A model generated the notes under the pieces. That model worked only from the letters and a program-made list of their open reading frames with translations. It was not told where the DNA came from and did not search any database. Positions 47,996 through 57,510 of a DNA stretch of 58,558 nucleotides are shown piece by piece. The translations under genes and the position numbers were made by a program. Source of the DNA: Candidatus Omnitrophota bacterium (lineage in GTDB: Bacteria > Omnitrophota > Gorgyraeia > B26-G9); NCBI GenBank assembly GCA_018895275.1, contig JAHIOQ010000048.1, positions 1-58,558 on the forward strand, in the 5' to 3' direction. How positions within the stretch are numbered: position 1 is the stretch's first letter; the number at the start of each line of letters is the position of its first letter.

Positions 47996-48196
47996 TCAAT
48001 GCTTCAGAAGCTGCTTAATTTCTTCCATGGTCTTGGTGTATTTAATGCAAAGAGCATATTTGGAAACATAAAGTTCTTCATTAACATAAAAATAATAAGC
48101 TATATATAAAGTCCCGATAAAATGCACACAGCCTGCCTCAGTCTCACGCTGTACCAAAAATCTTCTTTGAATAAACAAGTTATTATTATACATCAC
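47996..48196 (-). CDS. Small hypothetical protein, about 65 aa
   Basis: GAGGAGGAGG ribosome-binding site, its own promoter and a downstream terminator; no family recognised. Confidence 0.55.
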   Translation of the reverse strand: MMYNNNLFIQRRFLVQRETEAGCVHFIGTLYIAYYFYVNEELYVSKYALCIKYTKTMEEIKQLLKH

Positions 48197-48270: not shown

Positions 48271-48299
48271 AGTATATCATAGCCTCTCCCTTTTGTCAA
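48271..48299 (-). promoter_or_regulatory. sigma70 promoter (TTGACA-N17-TATACT, TG extension)
   Basis: Minus strand reads TTGACA aaagggagaggctatga TATACT. Confidence 0.7.
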
Positions 48300-48363: not shown

Positions 48364-49182
48364 CTACTCGGAAAGATAATATTTAAGCGTTTGTATTGTA
48401 TTATCACGCATAATTTCAATTTCCAGGATTTTTACCTGCTCTATTTTTTTCGCAATTTCAAAGGCATCGGACACATCTTTAAGCGGCATTTTATTGACGC
48501 TTTTCACCACATCATTGTTTCTAAAGCCTAAGGCCACAATCGTGCCGCTATTAGGAAGGTTTTTAAAACATATACCGTGAACGCTCCCTGAACCTTTATC
48601 AATTGCCTTGGAAATTTTAATAGAATTCATTTCTTTAACTGCCGACACAATCATGTCTGATACGGCATTCTTATCTATAATCCTTTCATTTTCCTTTATC
48701 CGGCGCACTGCGGTAAACGCAGAAGGATCATCTTCGAAAAGCAAGGCTCTTTTTTGTTCATCTATTTCCAGTATCACCCGATCAGAGAATATCGAAAGTA
48801 TCGAGAATCTGCCCAGAACGGAGCCTTCCGTGTAAATCCCTGTTTTGCGCAAATCAGTCAGCTCAATAAAAGCCAACGGCATTGACCCATGACAGACACC
48901 AAGAAGCCGCAATTTCGCCTCTTGTGATGAAATTGGAGTAATTACTTCGGAATCCATATCCATTGCCGGAGAAGATACGGATAAATAATTCGGTGATTCT
49001 TTATTAGTATCTGCATCTTTAAGCATGGATACAGAAAATACACGGTTACGTGTAATATTCCCCTTTATTTCATCCCGCTGCAAAAGAATTGTCCGCAAAA
49101 GAATAATTTGATACACGCAGAATACCGCATTAGCGAGAAGAATAAGCAGTAAGGAAACATAGGCGAGGTCTTTTTTTATCAT
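48364..49182 (-). CDS. GspC-like type II secretion protein (TM, HR domain, PDZ)
   Basis: TM anchor; LRLLGV...AFIE...GIYTEG..LG.F.ILSIFSDRVILE HR domain; ALGFRNNDVVKSVN PDZ-like C-terminus. Confidence 0.75.
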   Translation of the reverse strand: MIKKDLAYVSLLLILLANAVFCVYQIILLRTILLQRDEIKGNITRNRVFSVSMLKDADTNKESPNYLSVSSPAMDMDSEVITPISSQEAKLRLLGVCHGSMPLAFIELTDLRKTGIYTEGSVLGRFSILSIFSDRVILEIDEQKRALLFEDDPSAFTAVRRIKENERIIDKNAVSDMIVSAVKEMNSIKISKAIDKGSGSVHGICFKNLPNSGTIVALGFRNNDVVKSVNKMPLKDVSDAFEIAKKIEQVKILEIEIMRDNTIQTLKYYLSE

Positions 49183-49222: not shown

Positions 49223-50227
49223 CTAGAATTTCAGGGTGATGCCTAACTGATGCAGGTAATCTTCCACTCCTGCCGGTGCGTCTTGCCAATATATAAATGT
49301 GTAATCAAGATAATACTGTATAGGATAAATATTTAAAAAATCAGACCGCTGCCAGCCAAAACCGGTGCTGTAGAATTTACTTGAGTCCACTTTAGAATTC
49401 GGCTGATGCGCTCCTAGACGAAAAGAAAACGATTTCGTAAGATAGTGTTCAAAACCAATCCGGACATTCCGGCTGAAATCCGCCCCGTGGTCACTGGTAT
49501 TGCCGGTTAAATCATATATGTCGCAGGTTAAAACAGTTTTTTCCGATAAAAAGTACGCAATCCCCGGACGCATCACGCGTATAAGCCGGCTGTTAACGCC
49601 GAATAGCGTATATGTCGGCTCATTCAGGTTTTCCCATAATAGGCCAAAAGAAAGCACGTCATTAACGTACCACAAAAAGCCGAGGTTCACGCTTATTGCC
49701 GTATCAGAGTCCGATACCCCGGGAATATCCGTGTCAAAATAATAATAGTTCAGGGCAACACCCCAGGACATCGCATTATCTTTGGAAAATTTCCTTCCAT
49801 AAGCAATACCCGAATGCCAAAGGGAGGTTTTAACGGCCGTATTGGTATCTTCATATCCGCTATTATGAAAATAAAGTCCGATACCGCCGTATTTATCTTT
49901 ATTTTCTTCATACAAGGAGCTTATCGGCTGCGCATATGCGGCATAATCATCACTAATAAAATCAGCACTTATATAGTCATCCCTGTTTACAATAATCCCG
50001 GAATAAGTAATTTCCTTTTCCTGCTGCCACCCCAGCCCTGCCGGATTCCAGCTGGCCGAATGCACATCATCGGAAAGGGCCACAAAAGCCCCGCCCATGG
50101 AAATCGGCCTTACCCCGCCTTCGGCAGAGTAGCACTCAGACACACCGGATAGAAGTAAAAAAAGCAAACAAATGAAAATTAAAACATGTTCCCGGGAAAA
50201 GGTTGTAATTTTTCTATAACATATCAT
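49223..50227 (-). CDS. Outer-membrane beta-barrel, PorV/FadL-like
   Basis: Signal peptide; GVRPISMGGAFVALSDD.HSASWNPAGL N-terminal motif; alternating beta-strands; C-terminal ...LGITLKF. Start ATG at 50227 overlaps the upstream stop codon (TAATG). Confidence 0.8.
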   Translation of the reverse strand: MICYRKITTFSREHVLIFICLLFLLLSGVSECYSAEGGVRPISMGGAFVALSDDVHSASWNPAGLGWQQEKEITYSGIIVNRDDYISADFISDDYAAYAQPISSLYEENKDKYGGIGLYFHNSGYEDTNTAVKTSLWHSGIAYGRKFSKDNAMSWGVALNYYYFDTDIPGVSDSDTAISVNLGFLWYVNDVLSFGLLWENLNEPTYTLFGVNSRLIRVMRPGIAYFLSEKTVLTCDIYDLTGNTSDHGADFSRNVRIGFEHYLTKSFSFRLGAHQPNSKVDSSKFYSTGFGWQRSDFLNIYPIQYYLDYTFIYWQDAPAGVEDYLHQLGITLKF

Positions 50228-52782
50228 TATTTGTTCCCCCCATTGATAAGATGAACACATTGAATAATCGGCTGTAGATATTGCCTGCATATAATTTTAA
50301 TCGTCTGGTTATGGCGAATAGACTCGGCAATGCGCGGGCTGACTATATAATACAGCGAAACAAACTGCCTGCCGAGATTATCTTTTAGTAAAAAGCAGTC
50401 TCTGAATCTGCGCAACGTCTTTACCTGCGGCGCATCCATCGTTCCATAGCAGGCTGTCGCGATAAAACAATCACTACGCCCGGAACTGGAAGTGTCGCCT
50501 CCCGGACCGATTATCGTAACGTTCGCGCGGTTCAGCTCGGATGTGCCTCCTTCGTAAACCGACCCGTCATATCCGAACCCAACGTAATGATACGTAACTC
50601 CCGACTGAATATCGGTATGATTGAACGTATCAATGCTCCCCGGAGCCGCAGTACGCGTGCACAAAAGCGTACCATCTGTTTCGCCGGCAGGATACACCCC
50701 ATCCGTGCGATAGCGAATCATCGTACTCTGCAGGTTAGCCCGGCTTGAATTTTTCCAGCGCAGCGTTACCCAGCTGTTTGTGCCTAAGGAAATATTCGAG
50801 GCGGAAAAATCCGTTGGAGATAAGAACGCGGCATTAACCGGAGTCTGCGGGTCTCCCAGCAAATTGGCCGTAAAATGTCCCCAGCGATATGCCGGGTCAA
50901 TACTTAAGACTCCTATGGTATCTTCCTTGGCGTCCTGTAATGCCCTTCCCAAATTAATAATCCCTTCGCCGACAACCGCATCCCAGAATTCACGCATATA
51001 TCTTTGAGAAATACCATCGGTACTGCCGGGCACATACCAGCCATACCGGCTGTTCCCGACAAAAGCAAAAGCTCCATGGCTGGAGGTGACAAAATGCTCC
51101 AGCACGGAATCATCTGTGCCATAAGTTGATGCGGCTGTCGTCCGGTTATCGAATGCCCCGGAATAGCATCCTAACGTATATCCCAAAAAAGGATTAGTAT
51201 TGGTAAGCGCGTCGGCATTGGCATTGGCAAAGGTCTTGGCAAATATCGTATTGTTGGCATGTCCGTTATGATTTATGATGTGAATTCCGCTATTAAGAAC
51301 AGCGATAAGGTTATCACGCGTCCAGGTAGCGTCCTTATCGTAGAGTGTCGTAAATGTAAAATATCCGGTACCCGCCATGCCGGCTGTCGTATATCCGTGT
51401 GTGCCGGCCCCGTTTCTTATTTCTTCCAATCCGTCCTTTCCATAAGTATCATCGTCAAGTTTCTCACCGGCAAGAGCAACTTTAGTCAAATAAGCATCCG
51501 TTGAATTTTCATAGGCAATCGTTTTTTGCACAAAATTAGATACTTCCGTAGCGGAATCAACCGGCGCCCTGCCCACAGAGACCTCTGCCATAAGGTCTAC
51601 ATCTCCGCCGCCTGCGCCGTCGGTGGCTTCTCCGTAAATACCGTCCGCGTCATTATCAAATGTTCCGTCCAAACAGCCGTAATAAAGGTCCGCCGGAATA
51701 TCATTATCCGTATAAATTCCTACACTGGCATACAAGCCGCGATGCGGCACCACCGCTGCGGCATCGGTTTCTCCGTTTTTCACTCCGCTGGCATCTGCGT
51801 CTCCAGCCAAGAGCATGTATTGAGTACCGTAGTTTGTATAATAATCACTTATAAAATTGCGGATTCTCGTTGCGTTATCCGTTGAGCCGTCAGGCCGCGT
51901 TCCGGAATAATTCGCGTATATCCACTCCGTAGTAACAATCGCCGCTGTTAAGCCTTTTGAAATTTTATGAGTAATAAGGTCTTGAAATTTATAGGTTCCG
52001 GCCGCGTTTTTCAGCGCATCGCTGGTGATGATTACATATTGATAAGTGAGCAAGGGAGATTTCATGGGAACGCAAGCATTATAGGTATTTACGACATCAG
52101 AATTATCAACTACACTCCTTATGTCCTCCATGTCCGCTTTTATACCGCGGTAAAAAGGGTTCGCCTGCGAACCCGCGTCCTCATCCAGCGTAAGCGAAAG
52201 ATTCATATTATCGTAATAGGAAAGCTGTCCGCTGGCCGGTAGATACTCTACCGGGTAGAGATTGATTATCAGAATTTTATATCCGCGTTTAAATTGCGTG
52301 GAAACCACGTCATATAACTTTCCCGGAAAAGGCATGTTGGAATCATAGATATCCGGATTGGGCGGGGTCAAAGCGGCCTGGCCCGTATAATTTAGCGGCA
52401 CATGCTGCTGCGCCGGCTCCACGATATAAGAACCGTCTAGTGTCTTTTTACTTGTCCAACCAACATTAACTCCACTAACTGCCTTGCCGTAAGGCACAAG
52501 AAAACGCACCGTCTTAAACGGCAGGAGCGGTTCTCCCGGCGCGGCGCAATTCGCCAGCCCATTAATAATGACACGGTCATAATTACCGGCCCTTGTGACG
52601 ATTAGGGATTTGATCCGGGAGGTGATTACCCCCGAACGGATACGAAGGTCATACCCCGGCTCATTATCGCTTTGAGCGCACGCATACCCGGTACCGATAA
52701 TTTCCGCAAGAAAAAAAAATAAAATTATAAATACGTACCTCCATATTCTGTTATTGCGTCTTTTCTTCGGCATTAACTCCAT
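50227..52782 (-). CDS. C25 (gingipain-family) cysteine peptidase: signal peptide, propeptide, C25, FN3-like domain, CFI-box-CTERM
   Basis: PGEPLLP propeptide; YMLLAGD, DLYYGCLDG and VGRAP; catalytic NHNGHA (His) and LGCYSGAFD (Cys); FVGNSRYGW; LLGDP; C-terminal CFIATACYG...LRRFRD..L...G..FV.LYY..SP.IA. Confidence 0.9.
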   Translation of the reverse strand: MELMPKKRRNNRIWRYVFIILFFFLAEIIGTGYACAQSDNEPGYDLRIRSGVITSRIKSLIVTRAGNYDRVIINGLANCAAPGEPLLPFKTVRFLVPYGKAVSGVNVGWTSKKTLDGSYIVEPAQQHVPLNYTGQAALTPPNPDIYDSNMPFPGKLYDVVSTQFKRGYKILIINLYPVEYLPASGQLSYYDNMNLSLTLDEDAGSQANPFYRGIKADMEDIRSVVDNSDVVNTYNACVPMKSPLLTYQYVIITSDALKNAAGTYKFQDLITHKISKGLTAAIVTTEWIYANYSGTRPDGSTDNATRIRNFISDYYTNYGTQYMLLAGDADASGVKNGETDAAAVVPHRGLYASVGIYTDNDIPADLYYGCLDGTFDNDADGIYGEATDGAGGGDVDLMAEVSVGRAPVDSATEVSNFVQKTIAYENSTDAYLTKVALAGEKLDDDTYGKDGLEEIRNGAGTHGYTTAGMAGTGYFTFTTLYDKDATWTRDNLIAVLNSGIHIINHNGHANNTIFAKTFANANADALTNTNPFLGYTLGCYSGAFDNRTTAASTYGTDDSVLEHFVTSSHGAFAFVGNSRYGWYVPGSTDGISQRYMREFWDAVVGEGIINLGRALQDAKEDTIGVLSIDPAYRWGHFTANLLGDPQTPVNAAFLSPTDFSASNISLGTNSWVTLRWKNSSRANLQSTMIRYRTDGVYPAGETDGTLLCTRTAAPGSIDTFNHTDIQSGVTYHYVGFGYDGSVYEGGTSELNRANVTIIGPGGDTSSSGRSDCFIATACYGTMDAPQVKTLRRFRDCFLLKDNLGRQFVSLYYIVSPRIAESIRHNQTIKIICRQYLQPIIQCVHLINGGNK

Positions 52783-54268
52783 CCTCCCATTTCTGCCATT
52801 TTTGCGCCGCCTCCTTTAACGCCTGTTGCAGCGCAGCGTCCCGGTCCATAGGCTTTTTTTCTTCGTCTAAATCCTGTCTTAGTATATGTGGAGTAATAAA
52901 GACTACAATCTCTTTTTTCACTTTGTTGGTAGCAGTACTCCGGAAGAACAATCCCAGCAGCGGGATGTCACCCAATATGGGAATTTTGGTCCTGACCTTT
53001 GAATCGGTATCTTTTATAAGCCCTCCAAGCACTATCGTCTTTCCGTTTTTAACCACAACCACAGTGTCTGCCTGTGTCGTATCAACCGCGAGGGAATTAT
53101 TCACTTCCGCCACACGCCGCGCCGAACTTACTTCCGGATGAATCTTCATCATAATATAACCATCTTTTCCAATCTTCGGCGTCACATTCAATTTAACGCC
53201 GACGTCAATAAACTTCGTTTCTTGTGTCTGCGTATTGGTTTCCTTGTCGATATAAGTAACCAGATACGGCTCCGAACTGCCGACAAGAATATTTGCTTCA
53301 TTGTTATCCACGACAACAATCCGCGGATTGGAAAGTATGTTTGTATTCGTCATACTTTCCAGTGCCTGCACGGTTGCCTGGTACTGGTCTTCAGTCAATG
53401 TGCCGACTTTTAAAATACCCCCGGTAGTCAAGGCAATCGGCAGCTGCGCCGAAATATTCACCGCATTCTCGCCCGAAGTGCTGACATATTGCCAGTTTAT
53501 CCCCAGGCCTTTGGTTTTATCCAGAGAAACTTCCAGAATCTTTGCTTCAATCAAGACCTGCGCTGAACGCTGATCCCAGTTTTCGATAATAAGGTCAATC
53601 TTGCTTATCGTTTCCGGCACAGCCCGCACGACAAGGCTGTTCGTGCGCACATCAACAAAGACTTCTCCTTCCTGCTTTGGAATTAACTCCACGAGCTTAG
53701 CCTGGATATCTTTTACTTGCGCATAACTTAAATTATATATGCGCGTCACAAGCTTTCGGTCCATGACAACGATGGCCTCTTCGATAGCCTTAAGATTTTC
53801 GCAGGTATCGGTAACGATCATCTGATTGGAAATGCTGTTTATCTCCACCCTGCCGCGGGGAGATTTCAGGGAATTTAAAACCTGCCGCAGATCCGCCGCT
53901 TTGCTATTGACTAAGAAAAAGACACGGCTGACTAGTTTTTCCGTCTGTTCCTGCTGCAGTACATCCTGCTGCGTAAAAACTTTGATTATCCCATCTTCGG
54001 TTTTGAATACGAAGTTGTTGGCATCCAGGATTGCGTTCAGCGCCTGTTCAACCGTAACGTCCTGCAATTTTGCCGTAACCCGGCCCTGCACGTTTCTGCT
54101 GGCAACCATATTAACCTGCCCCTGTTCGCCAAGCATCCGCAAAACATCAAGTATGCTCATATTCTTCACGTCAAGGTTAATCCGCTGCGTTGTTATATCC
54201 TGCGCATAAAGATAACTTGCCGCACATATAAAGAATGTCAAAAATATGATACAAATATTTTTTTTCAT
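52751..54268 (-). CDS. gspD: Secretin (GspD/PilQ family)
   Basis: N0 domain, two N3 repeats, QVLIEAKILEV, NPRIVVVDNNEANILVG, DVGVKLNVTP, KIPILGDIPLLGLFF and EIVVFITP. Confidence 0.93.
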   Translation of the reverse strand: MKKNICIIFLTFFICAASYLYAQDITTQRINLDVKNMSILDVLRMLGEQGQVNMVASRNVQGRVTAKLQDVTVEQALNAILDANNFVFKTEDGIIKVFTQQDVLQQEQTEKLVSRVFFLVNSKAADLRQVLNSLKSPRGRVEINSISNQMIVTDTCENLKAIEEAIVVMDRKLVTRIYNLSYAQVKDIQAKLVELIPKQEGEVFVDVRTNSLVVRAVPETISKIDLIIENWDQRSAQVLIEAKILEVSLDKTKGLGINWQYVSTSGENAVNISAQLPIALTTGGILKVGTLTEDQYQATVQALESMTNTNILSNPRIVVVDNNEANILVGSSEPYLVTYIDKETNTQTQETKFIDVGVKLNVTPKIGKDGYIMMKIHPEVSSARRVAEVNNSLAVDTTQADTVVVVKNGKTIVLGGLIKDTDSKVRTKIPILGDIPLLGLFFRSTATNKVKKEIVVFITPHILRQDLDEEKKPMDRDAALQQALKEAAQKWQKWEDGVNAEEKTQ

Positions 54269-54789
54269 AATCTTAATTCAACCGTTTCTCCATCCTTTTC
54301 CAGGATGACTTTGGCCGGTAACACCTCTTTTACGGTAAAGCCGCCGATTCCTTCGCCCCCGTAACAGTAATACGATTGGTCTGTTTTTATATTAGCGATA
54401 ATTGCCTGCGGCCCCTGTGCCCCGGAAACAATACCCATTAATTGCAGGTCGCTCAGCTGTATGCCGGGATCAGCAACAAGCGCAAAATCCGGACGCGCTT
54501 TTACCAAACTGTTGCCGGTAGAAGAAATAAATAACCGTTCCCGGCTTAAGATTCGCTCGTAGAATTTCAATGACTTCTTGATTACCTTAAATTCCGGGAT
54601 AACCCCGTGTTCGCGGCTTTGCACTTGTTTCCGCACGGAAATCCCCTTTGCCGCTATAAATATATTCGCACAAAGAAATACGGCAATAACCGCTGCGGCA
54701 CACATCAGGAATATATTAAGCCGATCAACAAAAATTACCTTTTGCTGCGGTAGGCGGACATTCACGTCTATGTTTTCTTTACCAAACAT
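54265..54789 (-). CDS. GspC/PilP-like HR-domain protein without PDZ
   Basis: TM anchor, then LQLMGIVSG...AII...Y...GE.IGGF.VKEV....VILEKDGE.VEL. Confidence 0.7.
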   Translation of the reverse strand: MFGKENIDVNVRLPQQKVIFVDRLNIFLMCAAAVIAVFLCANIFIAAKGISVRKQVQSREHGVIPEFKVIKKSLKFYERILSRERLFISSTGNSLVKARPDFALVADPGIQLSDLQLMGIVSGAQGPQAIIANIKTDQSYYCYGGEGIGGFTVKEVLPAKVILEKDGETVELRL

Positions 54790-54794
54790 GATTT

Positions 54795-55319
54795 TTATTC
54801 CTTTGCCGTTGCCGCACTTAAGAGCAGCTGTATCTTAAGCGGCTCTCCCTGCGCCTGAGCTGCTATTTGTGTGTATTTAACAGAGAATACATACGGAGAA
54901 TCATCCAGGTCATAAAGGAATTTACCAAAATTCTTCAACTCCCCTTCCGTTTCAACCTTAACCTCAAACTTATCGTACAACCCCTCTTTTTTGACGGCCA
55001 GAGGTTTGATATTAATAACATTTAATCCCGCATCTCCGGCCTTGAATTTAATCGCCTGCAAAATATCGGTAGAACGCGTTTCCCTGTTTTCTTTTACGCT
55101 AAACTTTTTTTCGAAAACATTATACTCTTTTTCTACAAGTTCTTTCGATTCGAGGATAGTGCTGATCTTTACCAAAGCCGTTTCCATATCCTTTATTTTC
55201 GAGTTAACCTCTTTGTACCGCGGATACCCGAATTGGAAAAAAAAATAGTACGCGGCGGCTCCGCAGATAATAATCAAATAAACAGCCAGCAAAAGAGATT
55301 CGCGCCTGGTTAATTTCAT
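54795..55319 (-). CDS. pilO: PilO/GspM-like inner-membrane assembly protein
   Basis: LTRRE N-terminus, TM, coiled coil, then ferredoxin-like ...EVKVETEG.LKNFGKFLYDL. Confidence 0.75.
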   Translation of the reverse strand: MKLTRRESLLLAVYLIIICGAAAYYFFFQFGYPRYKEVNSKIKDMETALVKISTILESKELVEKEYNVFEKKFSVKENRETRSTDILQAIKFKAGDAGLNVINIKPLAVKKEGLYDKFEVKVETEGELKNFGKFLYDLDDSPYVFSVKYTQIAAQAQGEPLKIQLLLSAATAKE

Positions 55320-55936
55320 ACGAAAGCAGTTCCTTCTTTTTCCTCGCCGATCGTTGTCGGCTGCCCATGCCCGGGAAAAACAACGGTATCATCAGGCAGG
55401 CACATAAGCTTGTCCCGGATTGACCCCATCAGTTGTGCCAGGGAACCTCCCGGCAGATCCGTCCTGCCGACACCGCAATTAAACAGGGTGTCTCCGCTAA
55501 AAAGGATATCTCTCACCAGAAAACACATACCGCCCGGGGTATGCCCGGGGGTATGTATCGCCTTTAGTTTTAACTCCCCAACGGAGATCAGATCACTGTC
55601 CGCCAGAAACTGTAAGCACAACATAACATTTTTTTTATCTGCCCCTGCAAAAGACAGGCATTCTTTGTCATTACGCACCATCATTTCGTCATTCTTATGC
55701 ATAAACACCGGCAGGCTGCTAAATGCAGACAAAGCGCCGATGTGGTCAAAATGCCCATGTGTTAACAGTACCGCATTTATTTTCAGGTTTTCTTTTTTCA
55801 CTGCTGTTTTAATTTTTTCCCCCTCTGCACCGGGGTCAATCACAACCGCGTCACCGCTTTGCGGATCTCCCAGAATATAACAATTCGTCTGCAATACTCC
55901 GCCAATTATTGTCCGTACGATTATTGTGTTATCCAT
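55316..55936 (-). CDS. MBL-fold metallo-hydrolase (glyoxalase II-like)
   Basis: THGHFDH, TPGHTPG, FSGDTLF, GRTDLPGG and PGHG. Confidence 0.93.
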   Translation of the reverse strand: MDNTIIVRTIIGGVLQTNCYILGDPQSGDAVVIDPGAEGEKIKTAVKKENLKINAVLLTHGHFDHIGALSAFSSLPVFMHKNDEMMVRNDKECLSFAGADKKNVMLCLQFLADSDLISVGELKLKAIHTPGHTPGGMCFLVRDILFSGDTLFNCGVGRTDLPGGSLAQLMGSIRDKLMCLPDDTVVFPGHGQPTTIGEEKEGTAFV

Positions 55937-56511
55937 AGCGCAACCTTATCATAACTATATTTATTTTCCAGCAGTTTTGCGATATGTTCCAATTCATTTT
56001 CAATGTCCTTGGTTTTAACCAAAGGCAAATCCCCTTTCTTTATCTGCCTCACCAATGGAATAAGCCTTTCATTTACACCGGCGATTTCCTGCCGATACTC
56101 TTCTTTTATTAATTTTTGCAGCAACCGGATGTAATTACCGGCATTATGAGCCATGCGATATGCCCACAACGAATTTTTTGCTAAAGAATTTTTCGCCTCT
56201 TCCAAAGACGTTACGGCAAGCAGATGATATTGTTCATACTTCTCTTTTGGAGATTTCTGGGGATAAACGGTTTCTTCGTATTTTAAAACAGGCCCGCCAG
56301 GTTCCGCATCGTGTTTCTCGGACCGTTCTAGTTCGATTCCGCTGGTAAACCCCGTTAGAGAACTTCGTTCCCTAACGCTTTCCGCTGACGGTGCGTCAGC
56401 GTCTATATTTTTCCCACCACCGACTTCGTCGGTGGCTTTTTCTAACGGGGTAAAAGCGCACAATACCAGTAACGGTAAAATAGTAATACTTGCTGGAATT
56501 ATTTTTTTCAT
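55921..56511 (-). CDS. Hypothetical exported protein, 196 aa
   Basis: Signal-peptide-like N-terminus and helical C-terminus; overlaps both neighbours. Confidence 0.75.
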   Translation of the reverse strand: MKKIIPASITILPLLVLCAFTPLEKATDEVGGGKNIDADAPSAESVRERSSLTGFTSGIELERSEKHDAEPGGPVLKYEETVYPQKSPKEKYEQYHLLAVTSLEEAKNSLAKNSLWAYRMAHNAGNYIRLLQKLIKEEYRQEIAGVNERLIPLVRQIKKGDLPLVKTKDIENELEHIAKLLENKYSYDKVALWITQ

Positions 56512-57230
56512 CGTCCTTGACCTAATCTTGTCGCCAAAAATTCCGGCAGACAGGCATCCTTTATTTTGGATTGCGCCTGGATTATATTATACTTAATCCT
56601 TTTTATCTCCACAAGCTTTTTTTTAGTATCGAAGATACAATAAGAAGCCAACGGTATTCCGTCTCGCGGCTGGCCGACACTACCTACATTACAAATACAT
56701 AATTTGCCGACAGACAACAAAACGCGCTGCCGTCTTAAAGCTTGCGCCTTTCCCGCAGCAAATGTGAACACCTGCGGTATATGGGTATGGCCGAGAAAAG
56801 CAACAGGCCGCTTCATAAGATTAAAGTCTTCCCGTGCCTGCTCTATAGTATGAAGATAGGGAAAAATATCGGGATGATGTAAAGCTCCATGGACACATTC
56901 GATGTTTTCATCTATATACTGCAGCGGTAGATGTTCTAAAAACTCTTTATCTTTAGCCGATAGCCTTTCGCGGGTCCAGAGAATCGCTTCTTTAGCGTAA
57001 ATATTGAATGCCTCTATGCTAATTCCGGCAACACCCCAATCGTGATTGCCGGCAATTATATCGGCATTAAGCCTTTGAATCGCCGACAGACATTGTGACG
57101 GATCAGCTCCGTAGCCGACAATATCGCCCAGGCAAATGAATCTATCAATCGATTCATGTTTATACGCCTTCAAGACTGCTTCCAGGGCTTCCAGATTCCC
57201 ATGCACATCAGAAAATATTCCATAGCGCAT
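56508..57230 (-). CDS. Metallophosphoesterase (calcineurin-like)
   Basis: SDVHGN, GDIVGYG, GNHD, HG, GHTH and NVGSVGQPRD. Confidence 0.92.
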   Translation of the reverse strand: MRYGIFSDVHGNLEALEAVLKAYKHESIDRFICLGDIVGYGADPSQCLSAIQRLNADIIAGNHDWGVAGISIEAFNIYAKEAILWTRERLSAKDKEFLEHLPLQYIDENIECVHGALHHPDIFPYLHTIEQAREDFNLMKRPVAFLGHTHIPQVFTFAAGKAQALRRQRVLLSVGKLCICNVGSVGQPRDGIPLASYCIFDTKKKLVEIKRIKYNIIQAQSKIKDACLPEFLATRLGQGR

Positions 57231-57231
57231 A

Positions 57232-57510
57232 TTAATAGAACTTTATTTCAAACCCTTGAGTTTGCCCCGACGGCTTTTGCCAGGAAATCTGCTTCTGCTT
57301 GATATATAAACCGAAAACAGATTCCAGATCCTTTATAAATTCAAGCAGGTCTTCTTCCGGAGCTTCCGCCAGGATTTCCACGCGTCCATCCGGAAGATTT
57401 TTCACCCAGCCGCTAAGATTATATTTAACCGCGACATGCAGGGTTTTATAACGAAATCCTACGCCCTGAACCGTTCCCGAATAATAGATATGTACCTGTT
57501 TCTCAGACAT
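57232..57510 (-). CDS. acyP: Acylphosphatase
   Basis: G.VQGVGFR and [12 protein letters not shown]. Confidence 0.94.

Follow-up and report, generated by a model that had tools for sequence, protein, structure and literature searches.

What does a gingipain-type protease do when its gene lies between those for a secretin and an outer-membrane barrel, and what is the CFI-box at its C-terminus for? The question is raised by the window analyzed here, the whole 58,558-nucleotide contig JAHIOQ010000048.1 of a Candidatus Omnitrophota bacterium (assembly GCA_018895275.1), in which the protease gene occupies positions 50227..52782 of the (−) strand. A preliminary description of this DNA had offered two roles for the protein, cargo or self-sorting transpeptidase. 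We find that the protein, termed here the C25-CFI protease, is probably the dedicated cargo of a six-gene envelope module in one Omnitrophota family, with its tail serving as an address, a surface anchor or both. The CFI-box has been catalogued yet not studied, and it is widespread across many phyla.

The gene is an uninterrupted open reading frame (ORF) of 851 amino acids as listed. The likely start is the ATG at 52773, which gives 848 residues; GGAGG sits 9 nucleotides upstream of it, and the database copy is also 848 residues long. The ATG at 52782, which GGAGG directly abuts, is the poorer candidate. Residues 1–36 (52675..52782, (−) strand, as are all features of the protein) form a signal peptide with a basic KKRRNNR, a hydrophobic core and ACA/Q at its end. 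The only hydrophobic segment of the protein, residues 12–37, lies in this region. A gingipain-type prodomain follows (residues 44–204; 52171..52653), identified by Pfam and Foldseek; the Propeptide_C25 model (PF08126) matches residues 63–204 with 33.7 bits against a cut-off of 22. The C25 catalytic domain (residues 249–648; 50839..52038) was located by Pfam, PDB alignment and Foldseek. Its match to Peptidase_C25 (PF01364) over the same residues scores 199.2 bits against a cut-off of 23, which places the protein in the family. In a phmmer alignment against the PDB, His508 (codon 51259–51261) and Cys539 (codon 51166–51168) correspond to His211 and Cys244 of RgpB, and both are invariant across a 28-sequence alignment. 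The C25 catalytic dyad is thus intact, as had been claimed. Glu454, at least 90% conserved in the 28 sequences, occupies the position of the RgpB S1 residue Asp163, a hint that a basic P1 residue is preferred.

The AlphaFold2 model has a mean predicted local distance difference test score (pLDDT) of 85 and a predicted template modeling score (pTM) of 0.80. It shows a signal helix (11–36), a beta-sandwich prodomain (44–201) and an alpha/beta catalytic domain, followed by a beta-sandwich (657–756), a disordered linker (763–770, pLDDT <50) and a four-helix CFI domain (773–846). Foldseek matches it to RgpB (1cvr, E 2.3e-17, template modeling score (TM) 0.64 on the target), and the prodomain resembles those of RgpB and Kgp (4ief_C and 5mun, TM 0.63–0.73). 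Both the caspase-like catalytic fold and the N-terminal prodomain of family C25 are thus present by Foldseek and PF08126. As part of the dedicated-cargo reading, the gene product is best explained as a predicted Sec-exported zymogen of a gingipain-family (C25) cysteine endopeptidase. Its nearest C25 relatives are uncharacterized environmental proteins of Chloroflexota, archaea and Desulfobacterota. They are multidomain and extracellular, and carry other anchors (dockerin, SLH, PKD or MYXO-CTERM); this variety fits an extracellular head that adopts the anchor of its lineage. The locus also shows gingipain-family enzymes in use outside Bacteroidota with anchors that have no relation to type IX secretion.

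The C-terminal 200 residues form a tail of three parts. The first half is an FN3-like beta-sandwich (residues 657–756; 50515..50814), seen in the AlphaFold2 model and matched in Foldseek to many FN3 domains, in agreement with the FN3-like domain proposed earlier. A disordered G/S-rich linker, GPGGDTSSSGRSD, occupies residues 757–771 (50470..50514). The last part is the CFI-box domain (residues 772–851; 50230..50469), with four predicted helices, in a short form that lacks a transmembrane helix. The NCBIfam model CFI_box_CTERM (NF041770) matches residues 772–840 of 851 with 84.5 bits against a cut-off of 40, and a six-frame search of the genome puts the match at 50263–50469. The protein therefore ends in a CFI-box-CTERM instead of a type IX secretion system (T9SS) C-terminal domain, as the preliminary description had it. 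The signal peptide, PGEPLLP, NHNGHA, LGCYSGAFD, the linker and CFIATACYG...LRRFRD...LYYIVSPRIA that it listed are all found in the translated ORF.

Evidence on the role of the protein comes from the genomes of the family. Full-length C25 orthologues, 51–60% identical and all with the CFI-box, occur in 12 of the 17; three match over residues 650–850 only, and two give no match. The order secretin, CFI-tailed protease, barrel is kept in all 10 family loci with enough flanking sequence. In three sister genera (G210, G203 and G205), the slot is filled by a protein of 411–418 residues, which consists of a signal peptide, a Peptidase_M10 domain with HEIGHFFGL and a Met-turn, and the FN3-linker-CFI tail. 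The tail of these M10-headed proteins is 43% identical to residues 652–851 of the C25-CFI protease (E 8e-48). When the full FN3-linker-CFI tail was searched in a database of 5.8 billion proteins, only C25 and M10 heads were found to bear it. The tail is the constant, module-specific part, and the protease head is interchangeable (C25 or M10). The locus is a natural experiment: two protease heads of unrelated kinds bear one tail, and their slot, with a secretin on one side and a coupled barrel on the other, stays fixed. It is the constant CFI tail, not the protease head, that ties the protein to the putative outer-membrane export cluster, and this is a first testable clue to the role of the tail.

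Two further conserved features mark this module-specific subtype of the CFI-box (50230–50469 and its orthologues), in C25- and M10-headed proteins alike. One is a second conserved cysteine, CF[IV]AT[AV]CYG; the other is the extreme C-terminus, ...[LI]x[GK]G[GND].

Could the C25 enzyme be the machine rather than the cargo? In such a PorU-like arrangement, a C25 transpeptidase and the PorV-like barrel would cleave and attach CFI-box proteins, the enzyme itself included, as an analogue of the T9SS attachment complex built on a secretin. The translational coupling of the C25 gene to a PorV/FadL-type barrel speaks for this, as do partial matches of the protein to the PorU and PorU2 models. So does one locus of another genome (L046; G065:C73, 1-14998), in which two C25 genes (1368 and 952 amino acids) without the CFI-box come after a CFI-box giant of 2553 residues and share its strand; it is the sole case observed of C25 adjoining the CFI-box on separate genes. 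However, three genera have M10 in place of the C25 head and yet keep the tail, the barrel and the secretin, which is hard to reconcile with C25 as the sortase of the module. The PorU equivalog model (NF033707) gives 65.8 bits against a cut-off of 420, and the prodomain is of the gingipain type. The number of CFI-box proteins per genome had been set beforehand as a test between cargo and sortase. The source genome (G000) has only two CFI-box proteins and one C25 protein; these numbers fit a dedicated cargo and argue against a sortase. Any C25 protein is found in only 1 of 80 CFI-box loci of other phyla, and no cleavage motif is conserved ahead of the CFI cysteine. We give the sortase explanation little chance of being right. 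Of the two roles first proposed, that of cargo is supported, while head swap, PorU score, prodomain and copy number all tell against the transpeptidase.

Two related candidates were also rejected. Where a self-cleavage site before the CFI cysteine would lie, the linker reads TGRSD/C in many orthologues and SSSSS/C or GSSKS/C in others; since it varies in this way, a cleavage motif is not conserved. C25 and the CFI-box do not form a general pair either, as the single locus of other phyla with both (L135) shows. The enrichment of C25 with CFI among the top homologues is a biased figure, since homologues with the shared tail score higher.

All six module genes lie on the (−) strand, overlapping or with tiny gaps, and all six products have an N-terminal signal peptide or membrane helix. 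In order of transcription, the first encodes a GspM/PilO-like bitopic membrane protein of 174 amino acids (54795..55319; T2SSM_b 29.3 bits, above its cut-off, PilO 26.8 bits; membrane helix 6–31). The second encodes a bitopic membrane protein, also of 174 amino acids, resembling the GspC HR domain (54265..54789; T2SSC 31.4 bits, cut-off 27; membrane helix 17–53). The third is the dedicated secretin of 505 amino acids (52751..54268), with STN, Secretin_N and Secretin domains. It passes the Pfam Secretin model (163.9 bits) and stays below the GspD equivalog (281 bits against 351) and PilQ (272.6 against 284). Its gene overlaps the start of the protease gene by 23–32 nucleotides, and the genes further upstream are separated by 4-nucleotide overlaps or a 5-nucleotide gap. 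The stop codon of the protease and the ATG of the barrel overlap in TAATG, which couples their translation. The barrel itself is an outer-membrane protein of the FadL/PorV superfamily (334 amino acids; 49223..50227), assigned from the PorV/PorQ family model NF033709 (PorV_fam, 47 bits, below the cut-off of 90) and from its modeled fold, which is similar to that of FadL (E 2.6e-9) and to PorV chains in T9SS structures (8gl6_F and 6h3i_F, TM 0.57–0.59). The sixth gene (48364..49182) encodes a GspC-like protein of 272 amino acids with an N-terminal membrane helix, an HR-like region and a PDZ-like end. Both the window and the M10-type loci have it.

Elsewhere in the phylum, too, the CFI-box is linked to type II secretion. 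Of 15 other Omnitrophota loci, 7, which represent five independent lineages, have a GspC-like gene with T2SSC and PDZ matches directly downstream of the CFI-box gene, and the junction is an overlap or a gap of 0–3 nucleotides. The direct order of CFI-box and gspC-like PDZ gene is found in none of 77 loci of other phyla (Fisher p 3e-5 to 7e-7). In G041, the gspC gene after the CFI-box gene opens a complete gspC-E-F-G-H-K-L-M operon. Given the same tail on two heads in a fixed slot, and this pairing with gspC in other Omnitrophota, the function of the CFI-box can be tested as type II-like export or retention. A search of the literature for Omnitrophota together with type II secretion and secretin found no paper.

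A locus in another family (L056; G181:C7, 925-13603) holds a CFI giant of 3758 amino acids, an overlapping gene for a GspC-like PDZ protein and then a protein of 265 amino acids that weakly matches an outer-membrane beta-barrel. The C25-CFI locus has the same trio in another order. We also considered a common C-terminal PDZ-ligand motif, and rejected it because it is not shared by the GspC-PDZ-paired CFI-box proteins of other lineages.

Several observations weigh against a dedicated export module. No secretion ATPase, platform protein or pseudopilin was found on the 58.5-kb contig (C21), and the confidence of the barrel model is only moderate (pLDDT 65). The GspC-PDZ gene is missing from six C25-type loci, and the barrel family also occurs in G236, where it has neither CFI-box nor secretin neighbors. 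Most CFI-box genes of other phyla have no type II secretion neighbor. Synteny within the family extends over the whole 16-gene neighborhood, with lepA, rpe and lepB among its genes, and over the region from ybaB to lepB; since these housekeeping genes share the synteny, adjacency alone is weak evidence. Export across the envelope is, moreover, a step that we infer.

These points leave room for an incidental neighborhood. The protease would then be an ordinary enzyme that stays in the periplasm or is freely released, the genes for secretin and barrel and the Gsp-like genes would serve a pilus, polysaccharide export or the like, and the gene order would have been inherited with the housekeeping block. 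Besides the family synteny, the abundance of secretion genes agrees with this: the source genome has about 10 secretins in all and, on other contigs, 26 T2SSE-family matches. The closest paralogue of the module secretin (L154; G000 C24:104431-109440) belongs to a polysaccharide-type/PEP-CTERM locus, where its neighbors encode a Wzz/GNVR chain-length protein, a tyrosine-kinase-like ATPase and a cohesin-domain PEP-CTERM protein. However, chance adjacency does not account well for reading frames that overlap and are coupled, nor for a slot that retains a CFI-tailed protease despite the exchange of its head. Cargo and barrel are absent together from G204, and the pairing of CFI-box and gspC recurs in other Omnitrophota. 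On balance an incidental neighborhood is unlikely. As a separate observation, the type II secretion and type IV pilus set of this 2.56-Mb genome is unusually large.

Is the CFI-box, then, a C-terminal sorting signal of the classical type? Here an unlinked membrane sortase (of the CPBP, rhombosortase or exosortase type) would remove the CFI-box, and the protein would be anchored to lipid or wall at the cysteine. MYXO-CTERM offers a precedent (PMC11980579), and the CFI-box copies of other phyla have mostly the expected three parts, with a G-rich linker and the invariant cysteine ahead of a membrane helix and then a basic tail. Such a hydrophobic helix with its basic tail comes after the 69-residue CFI domain in 57 of 82 of these copies. 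In contrast, the Omnitrophota copies, the C25-CFI protease included, stop right after the domain. A search of the C25-CFI protease for a helix or basic cluster after the CFI motif, as in the tripartite signal, found neither, and an intramembrane enzyme would find nothing to hold in tails without a membrane helix. The invariant motifs of the CFI-box (C-F-I-A-T-A, FRD and YY..SP) are all present in the protease. A folded helical domain of 69 residues is far above known sorting motifs in size, and no conserved enzyme gene lies beside CFI-box loci. The second CFI-box protein of the source genome does adjoin an exosortase. It has 823 amino acids and no Pfam head (L003; contig C4:464-2935), and its gene lies directly upstream of those for an XrtA-like exosortase, a sugar transferase and two PEP-CTERM proteins. 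Taken together, removal by an unlinked membrane sortase appears very improbable for the module protein. The earlier view of the CFI-box as a C-terminal sorting domain has to be qualified; the membrane helix and basic tail seen in 57 of 82 copies of other phyla are not part of it here.

The distribution of the CFI-box is broad. It occurs in at least 590 stretches of a species-level genome collection of bacteria and archaea, with hosts that include Desulfobacterota, Gammaproteobacteria, Nitrospirota, Chloroflexota, Bdellovibrionota, Candidate Phyla Radiation (CPR) bacteria and Hadesarchaea. In the phylum sample, 14 of 201 genomes have it, with one or two proteins per genome that range from 108 to 3781 amino acids. 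A universal partner gene was sought by clustering 860 neighboring ORFs from about 97 CFI-box loci and was rejected; the partners are specific to lineages, and none crosses phyla. A search of the library for CFI-box, CFIATAAYG or NF041770 found no paper.

The best-supported view of the C25-CFI protease is that of a secreted or surface-held zymogen whose FN3-linker-CFI tail links it to a secretin and a barrel of its own; export itself we infer. The genes of the proposed module stand in the order GspM/PilO-like protein, GspC-HR-like protein, small secretin, cargo, FadL/PorV-type barrel and, in some genomes, GspC-like PDZ protein. The last 200 residues of the cargo, with the FN3-like domain, the flexible linker and the CFI-box without a membrane helix, would act as an address, a surface anchor or both. 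The protease would be transported to the periplasm by Sec, where the prodomain would hold the enzyme latent. One or more GspC-like proteins may then recognize the tail. The adjacent secretin would provide the passage across the outer membrane, with power from a type II/type IV pilus ATPase set encoded elsewhere, and contact between tail and barrel would retain the protease at the surface. More tentatively, the FN3 domain and the CFI tail without a membrane helix could be a portable address for export and retention, read by a dedicated GspC-like adaptor and the FadL/PorV-type barrel at the private secretin; we regard this as possible, though doubtful. If true, the system would be a hybrid of type II secretion, which provides the channel, and of type IX logic, in which a barrel holds the C-terminal domain of the cargo. 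The CFI-box would then have its first assigned machinery.

Additional genes on the (−) strand flank the module. At 55316–57510, genes for an acylphosphatase, a metallophosphoesterase, an exported protein of 196 amino acids and an MBL-fold (metallo-beta-lactamase) hydrolase run into the GspM-like gene with overlaps of 4–16 nucleotides or a 1-nucleotide gap. These genes, which are in synteny throughout the family, may join the transcription unit of the module. At the other end, the AT-rich gap between the GspC-PDZ and M16 peptidase genes contains a conserved ORF of 62–69 amino acids (47996–48193; M.NNNLFIQRRFQVQ...LYIAYYFYV..ELYVSKYALCI), which is also present in L038, L042 and L049. Near-consensus promoter-like sites flank it at 48299–48271 and 47928–47900; the promoter scan as a whole was uninformative, with 26 sites against 24.7 expected. 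The remaining genes of the window are housekeeping genes.

How does the module compare with known systems? We judged the relation of the C25-CFI protease to PorU, RgpB and Kgp by model scores and fold matches. It shares with the gingipains RgpB and Kgp of Porphyromonas gingivalis (MEROPS C25; PDB IDs: 1cvr, 4ief, 5mun) an inhibitory-type prodomain, a caspase-like fold and the positions of the catalytic His and Cys. However, it is only 15–16% identical to them, it carries FN3 and the CFI-box in place of a T9SS C-terminal domain, and its gene lies inside a secretin module. Searches of the source genome (88.7% complete), run without a positive control, gave no SprA_N or Por_Secre_tail match. PorU-PorV, the attachment complex of T9SS, likewise has a C25 protein encoded beside a 14-strand-type barrel of the FadL/PorV superfamily, and in both cases the barrel may hold a C-terminal tail that contains a beta-sandwich. 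The module differs in its scores, which lie far under the cut-offs of the PorU (65.8 against 420) and PorV (47 against 90) models, in a dispensable C25 head and in having a secretin rather than SprA as its translocon.

The GlyGly-CTERM proteases of Vibrio carry a C-terminal tag behind a linker, which works with type II secretion to give surface display (PMC12889589). In myxosortase (MrtX)-dependent MYXO-CTERM proteins of Myxococcus xanthus, a tag behind a linker is likewise predicted to lead to type II-dependent surface display (PMC11980579). By analogy, these two groups would be the closest functional counterparts of the C25-CFI protease. With the first, the likeness lies in a C-terminal tag that is common to proteases of different catalytic classes and follows an unstructured linker; these proteases have a link to type II secretion and are retained at the surface. 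The GlyGly-CTERM tag is, however, a short motif with a membrane helix that is cut by a rhomboid protease, whereas the module tail is a folded unit of 200 residues, with FN3 and four-helix parts and no membrane helix. We know of no processing enzyme for this FN3-CFI tail. MYXO-CTERM shares with it the C-terminal position and an invariant cysteine after a low-complexity linker, but is tripartite (motif, membrane helix and Arg-rich tail) and present in dozens of copies per genome, compared with the one or two CFI-box copies, without a membrane helix, in Omnitrophota genomes. In contrast to both, the Omnitrophota module couples a FadL/PorV-type barrel to its cargo. The C25-CFI protease adds a new member to known families; the module, with its exchange of protease heads, would be type II-linked surface display in a new form.

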